Positions 9,933-54,265 of a stretch of DNA of 64,000 nucleotides are shown here, in pieces. Each line of letters starts with the position of its first letter. The stretch's first letter is position 1. The notes under the pieces were generated by a model that worked only from the letters and a program-made list of their open reading frames with translations, was not told the origin of the DNA and ran no database searches. Source of the stretch: a virus; the IMG/VR virus record IMGVR_UViG_3300022696_000071, positions 105,748 to 169,747 of that record. One strand, given 5' to 3'. A program made the translations under genes and the position numbers.

Positions 9933-9975
9933 CTACTGCCTTACGGCAGATTTAGAATTCCATATATATAGTGAA
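9933..9975 (-). repeat. conserved hairpin element copy A (TTCACTATATATAT-N10-ATCTGCCGTAAGGCAGTAG as read on the minus strand)
   Basis: One of four copies (A-D) of an approximately 45-nt element: promoter-like 5' half, 10-nt spacer and a CTGYC/GRCAG stem-loop. A lies in the ORF-free region. Confidence 0.5.
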
Positions 9976-10255
9976 TCATTCTCTATGTCATGGATAATCT
10001 TTTTCTTCTCCAATTACTTCGATTTGTGTTTTGTTAACGAAATCAGTGGAATTTTTATTATTTTTGTTATGTGGGGGGATTAATGGATACAGGTCATGTT
10101 ATGATGAATCAGGTCATTTTGGGGAGATTTTGATCAAAATCTATTCAATTTTCTCTATACGCTGATTAATGATTCCATAGTGAAAATTGAATAAAAAAAT
10201 TAGTTCGATTATTGTCGAATACTTTCTTTTTACTTCTCTGAATGATCTTTCTAAT

Positions 10256-10285
10256 TCACTATATATATATATTAATAGATAATCA
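10256..10285 (+). promoter_or_regulatory. promoter-like motif TTCACTATATATATATATTAATAGATAATC
   Basis: Upstream of 10316..10597. Confidence 0.45.
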
Positions 10286-10315
10286 TTAACCATTTTAATA
10301 AAAAAGGAGATAAGT

Positions 10316-10597
10316 ATGATTACATCAATGAAGGATTTAATGTTGTGGGGTCGATTTTTCATAGTTTCAATCACTGTCATTCTGGTGATTGAGATTGCAC
10401 GTATTGTGCACCCTACATTTCTGTGGGTGCATAAATACACGATAGTGGATTGGTTGCTTAATACCAATCCACTATTCCACCAGCGTCGTCGTAACCGGAT
10501 TATTAAAGGCTTTATCCGGGAGAGAACCATCATGCAGTATGATAGGTTCTCTCGATACGGGGTTATCCGCGTATTAATTCAGAATATACGCGGATGA
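10316..10597 (+). CDS. small membrane protein
   Basis: 93 aa. RBS AAAGGAGATAAG. Promoter motif at 10256-10285. Terminator at 10607-10646. Confidence 0.4.
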   Translation: MITSMKDLMLWGRFFIVSITVILVIEIARIVHPTFLWVHKYTIVDWLLNTNPLFHQRRRNRIIKGFIRERTIMQYDRFSRYGVIRVLIQNIRG

Positions 10598-10606
10598 GAA
10601 ACCCCC

Positions 10607-10646
10607 AAAAGAGATCATGGACTATACATCCATGGTCTCTTTTTTG
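10607..10646 (+). terminator. hairpin terminator with loop GGACTATACATCC
   Basis: AAAGAGATCATGGACTATACATCCATGGTCTCTTTTTT. A near-identical hairpin core occurs at 7302-7338. Confidence 0.5.
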
Positions 10647-11033
10647 TTGCAATGCACATAAAAAAATAAAATCAAGCTGAAATTATTTTTTTATCTCGAT
10701 CTGTCCTACCCGCACTATGTAAAAAGTTAATAACTCGAAAATTTGACGACATCAGAAATGGGTCATTTTCAACTATATGTGACCTGTATCTTTGAAAATA
10801 GCCTATTTTTCTTTTTTTATAAATTTATACGATTTAGAGTATAGAAACATAGGACCATTTGGGTGATTTCTGCATTGCACAAAAATGATAAATTACTATT
10901 ATATATAAATTATAGTATATTGCTTCAGAAGCTCTCAGATGCGCCACATTGAACGCAAGCATTGGTGCATACAAGTATATTCAGAATGGTGCGAACGTTG
11001 AATACAGGACATTGAATAGATGGGTTATATATT

Positions 11034-51341: not shown

Positions 51342-51424
51342 CTGTTTGTCCTTTTAATTAATTCACGTAATATATAATTTTTGTCGCTACCCGCCCCTTT
51401 CCTGATATATCCCCTTATTTTATA

Positions 51425-51856
51425 TTAAAAATTCATTTTTTTATTTCTCATATGTAGTTTTAATGTTTCTTTTGTTATATTCAATTCTTCATTTAATTGA
51501 GTTATTAACATGGATGCGCTATTTTCTTCTTCTTCAAGTTGTTTATATTCGCTTTCTAACTCTCTCAATCGTGTCGTTTGATTTCGTTTTAATTCAAGTA
51601 ACTTTTTAATAGTGAAATCTTTTGCTTCAATTTCACTTTTTAAATCAATTATTTCATTAGTCATTTGATCATTATCGTTTTCATTATTACATTCTTCAAC
51701 GAGATCAACTAATGCATCTATTATTTCTACTGCTTCGGTATATGCATTAAACAGATCAATTTTAGTTATCTTGTTAAGTGAAGATTTTGTTATAATAGTA
51801 TATTCATCAGTAACAAAATCACCACATAAAGTAACATCTACTTTTTTTGTTCTCAT
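51425..51856 (-). CDS. coiled-coil protein
   Basis: 143 aa. C-terminal heptad-rich region (LRELESEYKQLEEEE...). Confidence 0.4.
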   Translation of the reverse strand: MRTKKVDVTLCGDFVTDEYTIITKSSLNKITKIDLFNAYTEAVEIIDALVDLVEECNNENDNDQMTNEIIDLKSEIEAKDFTIKKLLELKRNQTTRLRELESEYKQLEEEENSASMLITQLNEELNITKETLKLHMRNKKMNF

Positions 51857-51932
51857 TATTATATTTCTCCTATTTTATATTTGGGGATGATTTAAAACCA
51901 TCCCCAAATATCATGTTAATTTTATCGATTGA

Positions 51933-52997
51933 TTACTTTTTGCCTTGAGAAATTTTTTCAGCGAACGATTGAAACTGAGTCATCATATCTTCTGATTGTT
52001 TAGAAGATACAGTTGCTTCAGATAATTTTCTCATTTGCTCATATGCATTGTCGAGTTTATCAGTTGATTTTGCAAGTTCTTCTTCAAGATTCTTTATTCT
52101 TGATGATAATAGTACAGTCTTTTCATTAAGAACTCTGACTTCTGCATCGCTTTCAGCTTTAGTGACTGCAAGTTTATTCTCGTAATTAGATTTTACTGCG
52201 TTGGTGGCGATAGCTTTCTCTTTCTCGAACTTCTCTTTTAATTCATCGGGAATATCTTCGATTCTTTGTTCCAATTCGTTGATTCGTTCAAGATACTCAT
52301 CTTGTTCCATTTTCACTTTTTCGAACTCTTCTTTCTCATGTTCGAATTCTTTTCGACGTTGAGCAAGTAGAGTTTCAAATTCTTCCCTTTGAATTTTCAA
52401 CTCATTTTTAAATGCGTCTCTATCATCTCGTTGTTTAATTTTCTTATTGTATTCATATTCTTCTTGTTCACGATCAATTTTAATTTTGAATTCTTCTAAT
52501 TCCCGTTCGAGTCTTGCCTTTTCTCCTTCATATTCTTGTCGTGTAGATGCAATCTTTTCAGCTTTATCGGCTTTATGTTTAGCTTCAAATTCTTTTGCAG
52601 CATTCATCAATGTAAGAAGTGTTCCTGCCGCTTCTTCGATGCCATACAGTTCTTCAAGTTTAGATGATTGTTCTTCGATTGCTGTATTAAATGAAGATAA
52701 TTCTTCATTCTTTTTAACAATCTCATCAGCCACTTTCCTGGTGATGGATGATAGTGATTTGATGAGTTGTTCTGAAAGTTCGTCTCTTAATTTATCAGAG
52801 TCACCACCAATAAGATTACCGATCATATCAAATGATGCCTGAACTTTTTGGGCATGTTCTTCTTTTTCGGGATTAAAATCATCAAATCCAAGCTGTTCAA
52901 GAAGCTCTCTCTGCTTTTCGACAATTTTTATAAATTCGGCTTTGGTAGTTCTTTTAACAACAGTCTTATTTTCCGTATCAATATTAATGTCTACCAT
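51933..52997 (-). CDS. E/K-rich coiled-coil protein (scaffold- or SMC-like?)
   Basis: 354 aa. Long charged heptad-like stretches. Confidence 0.4.
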   Translation of the reverse strand: MVDINIDTENKTVVKRTTKAEFIKIVEKQRELLEQLGFDDFNPEKEEHAQKVQASFDMIGNLIGGDSDKLRDELSEQLIKSLSSITRKVADEIVKKNEELSSFNTAIEEQSSKLEELYGIEEAAGTLLTLMNAAKEFEAKHKADKAEKIASTRQEYEGEKARLERELEEFKIKIDREQEEYEYNKKIKQRDDRDAFKNELKIQREEFETLLAQRRKEFEHEKEEFEKVKMEQDEYLERINELEQRIEDIPDELKEKFEKEKAIATNAVKSNYENKLAVTKAESDAEVRVLNEKTVLLSSRIKNLEEELAKSTDKLDNAYEQMRKLSEATVSSKQSEDMMTQFQSFAEKISQGKK

Positions 52998-53053
52998 TTT
53001 AATCTCCTAAAAAATATCTTTTAATTTTGTTTTTAACACTTCATGATAATTTC

Positions 53054-54214
53054 TTATTTTTCTTTATACTTTACATCAACTCTTTCTGATTTTTTGAAAT
53101 GTCTTTTTCGTATAGCAACCCCCCTTTCACCTACTTTTGGTTGAAACAATATAAGCCGATCCCATTCAATTCTTTTTCTTGGAAGTTTAAATCCAGTTTG
53201 CCATGTTGTATCTTTTATCCATGATGGGAATGCATCTTTCTCACCGCGTTCTTTCCATTTTTTATAATATGAACATTCGGTTGCTCTTGTCATAAATCTT
53301 AAATTTTCAAGAGCAGATCTGTATTTCTTCGCCATAGTTGATAATAATTCAAGATTTTCTACATTGTGATCATATAAAGGCCAATCACTATCATTGTATG
53401 GTATATCTATTTCTACATGAAATGCATCAACTTTTATTGATTTTCGTTCACCTACATCTTTTGATTTTGGTCTTGGTGGATAGAATACAGAATCTTCTTT
53501 ATAGAATATTCCATTAGCTTTCATTTCTTTTATATGAAGATTTATATAACTTAATTCTCTTTTCAATCGATCAATAAGTATCTTTGATATGAAATAATAC
53601 TGACCATAAAGACCAGTCCATCTATTTGGGTGAACAAAGTTTTTAAACACAATTCTATTTGAACCTGTCAGCAATTTATGTTCTGTTAAGAATTGATTTT
53701 CTTGTCGATCAGATGGGAATTGTATAGTTTCCCATCCACTATATAATGTTCCATCGAAATCAGTCATGGCATAATTTCGAAAATCACCAACATCACTTTT
53801 AGTAATTACATTTGCATCCATCATTTTCAATGAGAAAATAAATGTGTCTTTGTTTGATACAAGTCTGAGAATCTTTCCATGTCGATTTTCTCCAGACACC
53901 ACCAATTGACCTTCTTTTATACTTTTTCCTCTTATTCTTTCATATGTTGGAATATTTATAATCGCGCCTCTATCAATCAATGCGTACAAGAATACTGCAA
54001 GATCGAGATCTGTTCCAACGAAAACCTCATCTTTATATGCAGGACCAGGTTTTCTTGAATAAAGATCGTAATCCCAATAACCTAATACATCATCAATATA
54101 TGATGATTCATATATATTGAAGTTACGATTGCAAATATCTTTTACAATTTGTCTATCTAATACACTTGTTAATGTTTTGGCAACATGTTTCGACATATTA
54201 TTTCTCCTAATCAT
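53054..54214 (-). CDS. hypothetical protein (last gene of the Ubl-cassette transcription unit)
   Basis: 386-aa ORF. The conserved hairpin element copy B (54221-54265) lies immediately upstream of its start. Confidence 0.4.
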   Translation of the reverse strand: MIRRNNMSKHVAKTLTSVLDRQIVKDICNRNFNIYESSYIDDVLGYWDYDLYSRKPGPAYKDEVFVGTDLDLAVFLYALIDRGAIINIPTYERIRGKSIKEGQLVVSGENRHGKILRLVSNKDTFIFSLKMMDANVITKSDVGDFRNYAMTDFDGTLYSGWETIQFPSDRQENQFLTEHKLLTGSNRIVFKNFVHPNRWTGLYGQYYFISKILIDRLKRELSYINLHIKEMKANGIFYKEDSVFYPPRPKSKDVGERKSIKVDAFHVEIDIPYNDSDWPLYDHNVENLELLSTMAKKYRSALENLRFMTRATECSYYKKWKERGEKDAFPSWIKDTTWQTGFKLPRKRIEWDRLILFQPKVGERGVAIRKRHFKKSERVDVKYKEK

Positions 54215-54220
54215 ATAATC

Positions 54221-54265
54221 TTACTAAATATATTAAATTTTAGATCTGTCGCAAGACAGTAGATC
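54221..54265 (+). repeat. conserved hairpin element copy B (TTACTAAATATATTAAATTTTAGATCTGTCGCAAGACAGTAGATC)
   Basis: Overlaps the 3' end of the minus ORF 54233..54529 and lies just upstream (minus sense) of 53054..54214. Confidence 0.5.

Follow-up and report, generated by a model that had tools for sequence, protein, structure and literature searches.

Short hairpins near phage promoters have been described in several systems. In phage lambda, boxB is a 5-bp stem with a GNRA-like loop that lies just downstream of the early promoters. In phage N4, a hairpin is itself the promoter of the virion RNA polymerase and is located upstream of the start site, and the T7 phi10 leader presumably places a 5'-terminal stem-loop on a phage-promoter transcript. 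An element of this general kind, i.e., a variant of the already known promoter-proximal RNA hairpins and small RNAs of phages, occurs four times in the 64,000-nucleotide stretch of viral DNA analysed here (the window; positions 105,748 to 169,747 of IMG/VR record IMGVR_UViG_3300022696_000071). In each copy, the standard promoter of the phage is joined directly to a short hairpin module, which we take to occupy a position comparable to that of the T7 phi10 stem-loop, and no gene follows. The N4 hairpins are similar in that they are 5-bp DNA hairpins with a loop of 3-4 nt and serve phage early transcription; an N4-type hairpin promoter was rejected here, as the hairpin is preceded by a complete standard promoter and is itself part of the predicted transcript.

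The early promoters of phiKZ and AR9 likewise consist of a conserved AT-rich motif of approximately 10 nt ahead of many short operons, in phages that encode homologues of the RNA polymerase subunits beta and beta' (PMC7598289). However, the polymerase encoded here belongs to another, uncultivated lineage (approximately 24% identity to AR9 beta), and in the phiKZ/AR9 literature consulted, including PMC7598289, no gene-less promoter copies bearing a hairpin are described. In the ompA and papA transcripts (cited in PMC3997798), a stem-loop is positioned within a few bases of the 5' end, as is predicted for the RNAs considered here. These hairpins and the T7 phi10 leader stabilise mRNAs, whereas no coding sequence follows the hairpins in the window, and their flanks are conserved as sequence. 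The RNA anti-CRISPR RacrIF1 (Camara-Wilpert et al. 2023, PMC10651486) shares the layout of a promoter followed by a single repeat-like stem-loop, with no cas genes nearby and no open reading frame (ORF).

The source of the window is an uncultivated giant phage of approximately 200 kb that encodes its own multisubunit RNA polymerase; the window itself is AT-rich, with a guanine-plus-cytosine (GC) content of approximately 29%. The element is approximately 45 nt long, and its copies are located at 9975-9932 on the minus strand (copy A) and at 17353-17396 (copy C), 30251-30295 (copy D), and 54220-54263 (copy B) on the plus strand. Each of them comprises a promoter part, built from two blocks, and a hairpin module:

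9951..9975, minus strand: promoter of copy A, TTCACTATATATAT (9975-9962) and second block GGAATTCTAAA; consensus match 21/25
9932..9950, minus strand: hairpin module of copy A, T-CTGCC-GTAA-GGCAG-TAGA; stem-loop CTGCCGTAAGGCAG at 9949-9936, TAGA at 9935-9932; 40.8 bits
17353..17377, plus strand: promoter of copy C, TTCACTATATATAT (17353-17366) and second block AAAATTGTAAT; consensus match 23/25
17379..17396, plus strand: hairpin module of copy C, T-CTGCC-GTA-GGCAG-TAGA; stem-loop CTGCCGTAGGCAG at 17380-17392, TAGA at 17393-17396; 37.9 bits
30251..30275, plus strand: promoter of copy D, TTAACTATATATAT (30251-30264) and second block CAAATATTGAT; consensus match 19/25
30277..30295, plus strand: hairpin module of copy D, T-CTGTC-GGAA-GACAG-TAGA; stem-loop CTGTCGGAAGACAG at 30278-30291, TAGA at 30292-30295; 40.1 bits
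54220..54244, plus strand: promoter-like half of copy B, CTTACTAAATATAT (54220-54233) and second block TAAATTTTAGA; consensus match 19/25
54245..54263, plus strand: hairpin module of copy B, T-CTGTC-GCAA-GACAG-TAGA; stem-loop CTGTCGCAAGACAG at 54246-54259, TAGA at 54260-54263; 39.7 bits

The four copies had been reported in an initial annotation of this DNA, and a check of the sequence found them at the positions given there. A covariance model of the 30-nt hairpin module, derived from the four copies themselves, returns exactly these four (37.9-40.8 bits, E about 1e-8), the next-best match in the window reaching 13.5 bits. The description of the element as a promoter-plus-hairpin module is supported. 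A pattern search of the window for the 18-nt hairpin core gives 3 occurrences, compared with an expectation of 0.02; copy C escapes the pattern only because its loop is one base shorter. When the copies are aligned with 25-30 nt of flank on each side, conservation is limited to approximately 45 nt: the flanks are unrelated, and the similarity ends abruptly after TAGA.

The upstream part is the standard promoter of the phage. Ordinary promoters, of which 14 were collected in the window, read TT.ACTATATATAT followed by TAAaTaATAAc and have the 25-nt consensus TTCACTATATATAT plus TAAATTnTAAC; after each of the 14, there is a leader of approximately 35 nt, AGGAGG, and a start codon (approximately 45-55 nt downstream). 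The hairpin copies match the consensus at 19-23 of 25 positions (the promoter half of copy B has 3 mismatches) and the ordinary promoters at 15-23 of 25. Because the match range of the former is that seen among the latter, the hairpin copies do not form the distinct promoter class that had been suggested. The supposed 10-nt spacer between the two halves is in fact 11-12 nt long and is not arbitrary, since it bears the conserved second block of the ordinary promoter in each copy (as listed above, versus TAAATTGTAAC in ordinary promoters). Thus, of the proposal that a hairpin has been exchanged for the downstream half, only a part stands: the transcribed leader, with its ribosome-binding site and ATG, has been replaced, whereas the second promoter block is still present. 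At none of the four copies is there a ribosome-binding site with a start codon or an ORF downstream, in agreement with the annotation.

The promoters of jumbo-phage RNA polymerases are AT-rich motifs of approximately 10 nt centred near -10 (PMC7598289), and this rule would set the start such that the hairpin lies at the very beginning of the RNA. A T-R-R trinucleotide is conserved 7 nt past TATATAT (TAA, TAA, TGA, and TAG in the four copies; TGA in relatives), and transcription probably starts there, 4-5 nt before the stem. A sigma-70-type promoter was rejected, as the sites show no consistent -35/-10 spacing. The promoter core, TATATATATTAA(A/T)TnnTGA, is found again in relatives whose RNA polymerase beta is 35-57% identical to that of the source phage (contigs L034, L035, and L070-L149), where 32 of 35 sites lie on the strand of the beta gene; this shared core provides a handle for annotating transcription units across this uncultivated jumbo-phage family. 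Hairpins at the 5' end are not a general habit of the promoter family, an idea that was rejected because folding after 49 of its promoters averages -1.6 kcal/mol compared with -2.1 kcal/mol for random segments; the four copies are therefore a special case. At 5806-5740 (minus strand), an ordinary promoter is directly followed by a different hairpin, GUAGAAUCGUCUGAGGAGGUUGGACGGUCUAC. This hairpin also starts with GUAGA and buries GAGGAGG, which resembles a ribosome-binding site, and it may serve translational control at the level of the leader.

The hairpin module can be written U-CUGYC-GNRA-GRCAG-UAGA, and 17 of its 30 aligned positions are invariant, including the unpaired T before the stem and the TAGA after it. 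It had been described as starting with ATCTG; the T before CTG is indeed invariant, but the base preceding that T is variable. Bases pair in 20 of 20 stem cells, with one pair alternating between C:G (A and C) and U:A (B and D). The loops (GUAA in A, GGAA in D, GCAA in B, and GUA in C) vary in sequence and length and nonetheless keep the G..A closure. Because the spacing of the arms shifts by one base and the double substitution is symmetric, a folded single strand fits these data better than a rigid dimer on duplex DNA. As promoter-sense RNA, the four copies fold at -6.2 to -8.3 kcal/mol (copy A at -8.3 kcal/mol, z -4.6), and the antisense strand folds nearly as well. The invariance of flanks that do not pair speaks for recognition of the sequence itself and not only for a stable fold. 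The module was also considered as an intrinsic terminator; this was rejected because no U tract adjoins the stem, the first run of five T being 8 nt (C), 17 nt (D), approximately 46 nt (B), and approximately 52 nt (A) after it, with UAGA and 4-48 further bases in between. With Rfam, the surroundings of copies A and C gave only noise at E values of up to 10.

The copies are placed in different surroundings. Copy A is found approximately 1 kb beyond the downstream end of the large terminase gene and stands back to back with the ordinary promoter 10255 of the plus strand; its transcript would enter the following region:

8430..9931, minus strand: ORF-free, repeat-rich region of 1.5 kb

The annotation had placed copy A before an ORF-free segment, and this was confirmed, with no ORF in the 1.5 kb under any stop-codon reading; nor did the ORF-free regions yield long or hidden ORFs under alternative stop-codon readings or genetic codes. 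The region contains an imperfect hairpin at 9925-9807 with 28-bp arms (fold z about -3), three iteron-like 23-mers at 9457, 9535, and 9568, and AT-rich tracts. A search of IMG/VR for the iteron motif gave 3 single chance matches. A gene-poor stretch after the terminase gene is also found in two relatives (contigs L158, 11680-14500, and L160, 11842-14470), in one of which a gene-less promoter stands at the start of the stretch and the contig ends approximately 5.7 kb further on. The ORF-free region after the terminase gene may serve as an origin of replication or as a packaging site, or it may mark an end of the genome.

Copy C is located between a bidirectional terminator (approximately 17290-17336) and the ordinary promoter 17410; its hairpin is followed by GACGTTTTT and then by that promoter, which drives a mini-gene, as had been noted. 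The mini-gene (17471-17638, plus strand) is GC-rich and encodes a 55-aa Ala/Gly-rich peptide (MNMNGWAKFGMAVGAVVVANIACAAAAGTW...) that is probably membrane-active. The last plus-strand gene (29370-30254) has its stop codon (30252-30254) inside the promoter of copy D. The 430 bp after this copy had been regarded as noncoding, but they hold a small gene unit on the opposite strand:

30310..30634, minus strand: unit facing copy D, with the ordinary promoter 30634, a 44-aa ORF (30490-30356) with a good ribosome-binding site, and a terminator at approximately 30353-30310

As copy D faces this unit, its RNA would be antisense to the 44-aa ORF unit; the region 30310..30634 has a fold z of -4.9. Copy B had been placed ahead of the gene 53054..54214, to which it is in fact antisense. 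It lies on the plus strand within the last 10 codons of the preceding minus-strand ORF (54233-54529), antisense to the stop codon region, and the next start codon (54214) lies 7-50 nt further downstream on the minus strand; the small genes to which copy B is antisense overlap one another in a chain. Three copies (A, D, and B) thus point against neighbouring genes or into the 1.5-kb ORF-free region.

No further copies were found. The search for the element covered the 64-kb window, the other approximately 137 kb (two-thirds) of the source genome lying outside it. The exact hairpin pattern has 32 matches in IMG/VR, all by chance and none with a promoter upstream, and the promoter-plus-hairpin pattern has one chance match, in DNA of 50% GC, in metagenome contigs of the Joint Genome Institute. 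A relaxed pattern of the promoter with any stem has 5 matches in IMG/VR, of which 0 are self-complementary. Copy A has no blastn match among 50,697 phage records, regular-expression and covariance-model scans of up to 1.76 Mb around the polymerase genes of at least 80 relatives gave nothing significant, and at terminase-anchored loci of three relatives promoters are present and this hairpin was not found. The nearest relatives compared have an RNA polymerase beta identity of at most 57% and are too distant for noncoding DNA to align. The initial annotation had treated four lone copies, missing from related genomes, as a sign of chance duplication. None was indeed found elsewhere, but chance duplication does not follow: given the distance of the relatives and the 137 kb outside the search, the absence points to lineage specificity, and the element appears to be lineage-specific as far as can be seen.

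Taken together, these observations are tentatively interpreted as follows, at a little short of an even chance: the four copies would be gene-less transcription units that make non-coding RNAs with a shared 5'-proximal protein-recognition hairpin, some of them cis-antisense. Among the roles that had been offered for the element, a non-coding RNA 5' end or a protein-binding site fits best, although transcription and binding are both predicted. The standard promoter, which the phage's own multisubunit RNA polymerase probably recognises, is fused directly to an RNA module. With a start at T-R-R, 4-5 unpaired bases would precede the 5-bp GNRA-capped hairpin in the RNA; together with its invariant flanks, the hairpin would form a common 5' tag, i.e., a sequence-specific binding site for a protein, and may also help to protect the 5' end. 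The bodies of the RNAs appear mutually unrelated: those of D and B would be cis-antisense to minus-strand genes, that of A would run into the repeat-rich noncoding region, and C would read towards the next ordinary promoter. Few small RNAs have so far been charted in lytic and giant phages. If this interpretation is true, the element would be a compact and testable case in which a large uncultivated phage lineage with its own polymerase uses RNA for regulation or for counter-defence.

Several points weigh against this interpretation. The covariation amounts to one pair and effectively one evolutionary event, and 86 of 500 shuffles reach the same level. The promoter family shows no general enrichment of 5' hairpins, and no homologous element was found in the relatives or public collections scanned, so that independent evolutionary support is lacking. 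The start site and the RNA ends are deduced from sequence. Among the neighbouring genes, scans with Pfam and PHROG revealed no RNA-binding candidate. It should also be noted that RppH needs only 2-3 unpaired bases at the 5' end (PMC3997798); since the hairpin leaves 4-5, it may not block 5'-end-dependent decay.

A specific form of the non-coding RNA interpretation is that the hairpins are RNA anti-CRISPR-like decoys, which we consider unlikely. They would mimic the Cas6f (Csy4) stem-loop of type I-F repeats and, produced in bulk within the first minutes of infection, would titrate the Cas6f of the host, a single-turnover enzyme, thereby blocking CRISPR RNA maturation, as a minimal form of the solitary-repeat 'Racr' RNAs. 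The four elements would then be minimal, convergently evolved RNA anti-CRISPRs, i.e., bare Cas6f-type hairpins in two stem variants expressed from own-polymerase promoters, a proposal to which we give the same low probability; similarity searches for solitary repeats would miss such a decoy because only the protein-contact hairpin is kept. Type I-F repeats read GTTCA-CTGCC-GTATA-GGCAG-CTAAGAAA (GTTCACTGCCGTATAGGCAGCTAAGAAA; supplement of PMC10651486). The stem of A and C (CUGCC/GGCAG) is identical to their 5-bp stem, that of B and D differs at one internal pair, and the basal C-G pair, which is essential for Cas6f binding, is invariant. The G..A-closed loops GUAA, GCAA, and GGAA equal the I-F loops GUAUA, GCAUA, and GGAUA less one base, and the Cas6f determinant (5-bp stem, basal C-G, and GNR(N)A loop) is present with loops one or two bases shorter than those of the repeats. 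Solitary repeat units immediately follow a promoter and are remote from cas genes; in RacrIF1, it is the stem-loop and the part upstream of it that confer the anti-CRISPR activity, for which the stem-loop and its basal C-G pair are indispensable (PMC10651486). Here, a promoter is found within 250 bp upstream, its promoter half ending 11-12 nt before the hairpin; PADLOC detected 0 cas-like proteins among 20 window proteins, and there are 0 CRISPR arrays in the window. The affinity of Cas6f for a 16-nt hairpin is picomolar, and the enzyme remains attached to its product (PMC11734699); four copies on strong promoters would fit a dosage-dependent decoy. The distant cultured relative YerA41 (32% GC) infects Yersinia, so a low phage GC content is no bar to a host of the kind in which type I-F systems occur. 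However, none of the sense-strand copies is picked up, at E values of up to 10, by a covariance model built on six I-F repeats (RacrIF1 among them), which matches only the opposite strand of copy A (9.6 bits, E=6), and whole-repeat identity in the sense direction is approximately 17/28 by hand alignment versus 23-25/28 for RacrIF1. Only the 14-nt hairpin is common to RacrIF1 and the present element, which lacks the 5' part and the 8-nt handle of the repeat, is read from a phage-polymerase promoter, and comes in four copies with two stem variants. With only 4-5 nt of RNA upstream of the hairpin, a Cas7 filament of the RacrIF1 kind is impossible. CRISPR repeat families of Rfam gave no match, no such variant is present in the Racr supplement (PMC10651486), and no array with ...CAGTAGA repeats exists among 185,579 species genomes (12 chance matches in coding regions). 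Moreover, the resemblance is a post hoc observation, with many known hairpins to choose from. Read as its reverse complement (GTCTACTGCCTTACGGCAGATTTAGAAT, 9931-9958 on the plus strand), copy A also matches an I-F repeat at approximately 22/28 by hand, including TTAGAA; this looks coincidental and arises from the AT-rich promoter block, since the match is weaker in C (approximately 20/28) and much weaker in B and D (approximately 17/28 and 14/28). Should the hairpin nonetheless engage Cas6f-type enzymes, a class of RNA anti-CRISPRs would be missed by whole-repeat surveys.

Other explanations place the activity of the element in DNA, in antitermination, or in its past. Repressor operators typically sit just downstream of the start site, and CTGYC-N3-4-GRCAG with TAGA could be such a double-stranded site, at approximately +5 to +25, through which a phage regulator would turn the four promoters on or off at a given time. 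The position is as expected, the asymmetric invariant flanks (T..., ...TAGA) fit DNA read-out as well as RNA, and the covariation support for pairing is statistically weak; however, the half-site spacing is off by one bp in copy C, both half-sites have changed together in B and D, the loops keep the G..A closure of stable RNA tetraloops, and a dedicated switch is hard to explain on promoters that express no gene, which makes an operator rather improbable. The GNRA-type loops likewise point to RNA and speak against a link to replication or packaging, in which transcription into noncoding DNA would melt that DNA or supply a primer, as happens at the origins of T7 or T4, or the hairpin would form in single-stranded DNA as a loading site; these two variants jointly are quite improbable. 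Such a link would suit copy A, approximately 1 kb from the terminase gene and at the head of the ORF-free region with its iteron-like repeats and AT-rich tracts, as well as the two relatives with a gene-poor post-terminase stretch, one of them with its gene-less promoter and nearby contig end. Yet only copy A has a terminase or repeat context, B, C, and D lack repeats or obvious unwinding elements, and four dispersed origins in 64 kb would be unusual. An antitermination signal similar to lambda nut, in which the nascent hairpin recruits a phage factor and renders the polymerase terminator-resistant, has the least probability among the readings weighed here. Its appeal lies in the boxB-like hairpin, a short 5-bp GNRA-type structure after a phage promoter that is presumably read as nascent RNA, and in the position of copy C upstream of a 13-kb plus-strand gene block broken by several terminators. 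Nut sites combine boxA with boxB, but boxA (CGCUCUUA-like, at most 2 mismatches) was not found near A, C, or D, and the only match is a weak, chance-level one 55 nt downstream of the start of the promoter half of B. The loop is a tetraloop here and a pentaloop in lambda, three of the four copies point into antisense or gene-less DNA, so that a promoter-before-terminators layout applies at most to C, and most genes after C have their own promoters. Finally, the copies might be functionless remnants, i.e., promoter-leader fragments duplicated by recombination among similar promoters after gene loss. The element was not found in any relative examined, many near-identical promoters could favour recombination, and conservation halts abruptly after TAGA. 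On the other hand, substitutions concentrate in the spacer and loop, with none unpaired in the stem and none in TAGA, copy B is retained inside a coding region, and no gene-bearing source copy exists in the window; remnants are therefore also held to be quite improbable.

The remaining content of the window places the source phage more closely. Its main recognisable genes are as follows:

41264-44263: RNA polymerase beta homologue
49019-50617: N-terminal part of RNA polymerase beta', which is split
44540-47902: C-terminal part of beta', carrying an intein
11034-13004, minus strand: large terminase
20047-21507, plus strand: QueC-amidotransferase fusion

Proteins identical to those of the window are known from a Joint Genome Institute contig of 201,166 bp. 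Many uncultivated contigs of 150-335 kb carry homologues of beta at 35-57% identity, which makes the source phage one of a large uncultured group of jumbo phages. Among cultured phages, even the nearest by beta identity are very distant, namely YerA41 and Cobetia phage Carin-5 (approximately 27%) and AR9 (approximately 24%). The window has no nucleotide-level match among the 50,697 phage records, and a scan of the whole 64 kb revealed 0 tRNA genes and 0 Rfam families at gathering score. The two halves of beta' (44540-50617, minus strand) are separated by a homing-endonuclease-like ORF (47920-49032), and in the relative L035, beta' is one unsplit gene of 894 aa. The large terminase has 656 aa versus approximately 560-580 aa in most relatives, and some alignments are split, which suggests an insertion of approximately 90 aa that would be either an intein or an extra domain. 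A DNA methylase and a pyrimidine-dimer glycosylase are also encoded. GTP cyclohydrolase I is seen in relatives (L034, 16167-16796; L035, 2896-4587 and 13039-13662); together with the QueC-amidotransferase fusion, it suggests 7-deazaguanine modification of the phage DNA.

A gene whose end lies approximately 400 bp from copy D (30686-33280, minus strand) encodes an 864-aa protein with a major-vault-protein shoulder domain (Pfam E 2.5e-10), which is unusual in a jumbo phage. Its homologues of approximately 30% identity carry vault repeat domains, and some are found on contigs of approximately 190-210 kb. The terminators of the phage are stereotyped long hairpins (AAAAAAAGAGA-loop-TCTCTTTTTTT) that occur at many sites between 5374 and 17329 and are often bidirectional, for example at the following positions:

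7302/7332, 8376/8421, 13486/13513, 14353/14391, 16007/16039, and 17295/17329: bidirectional terminators

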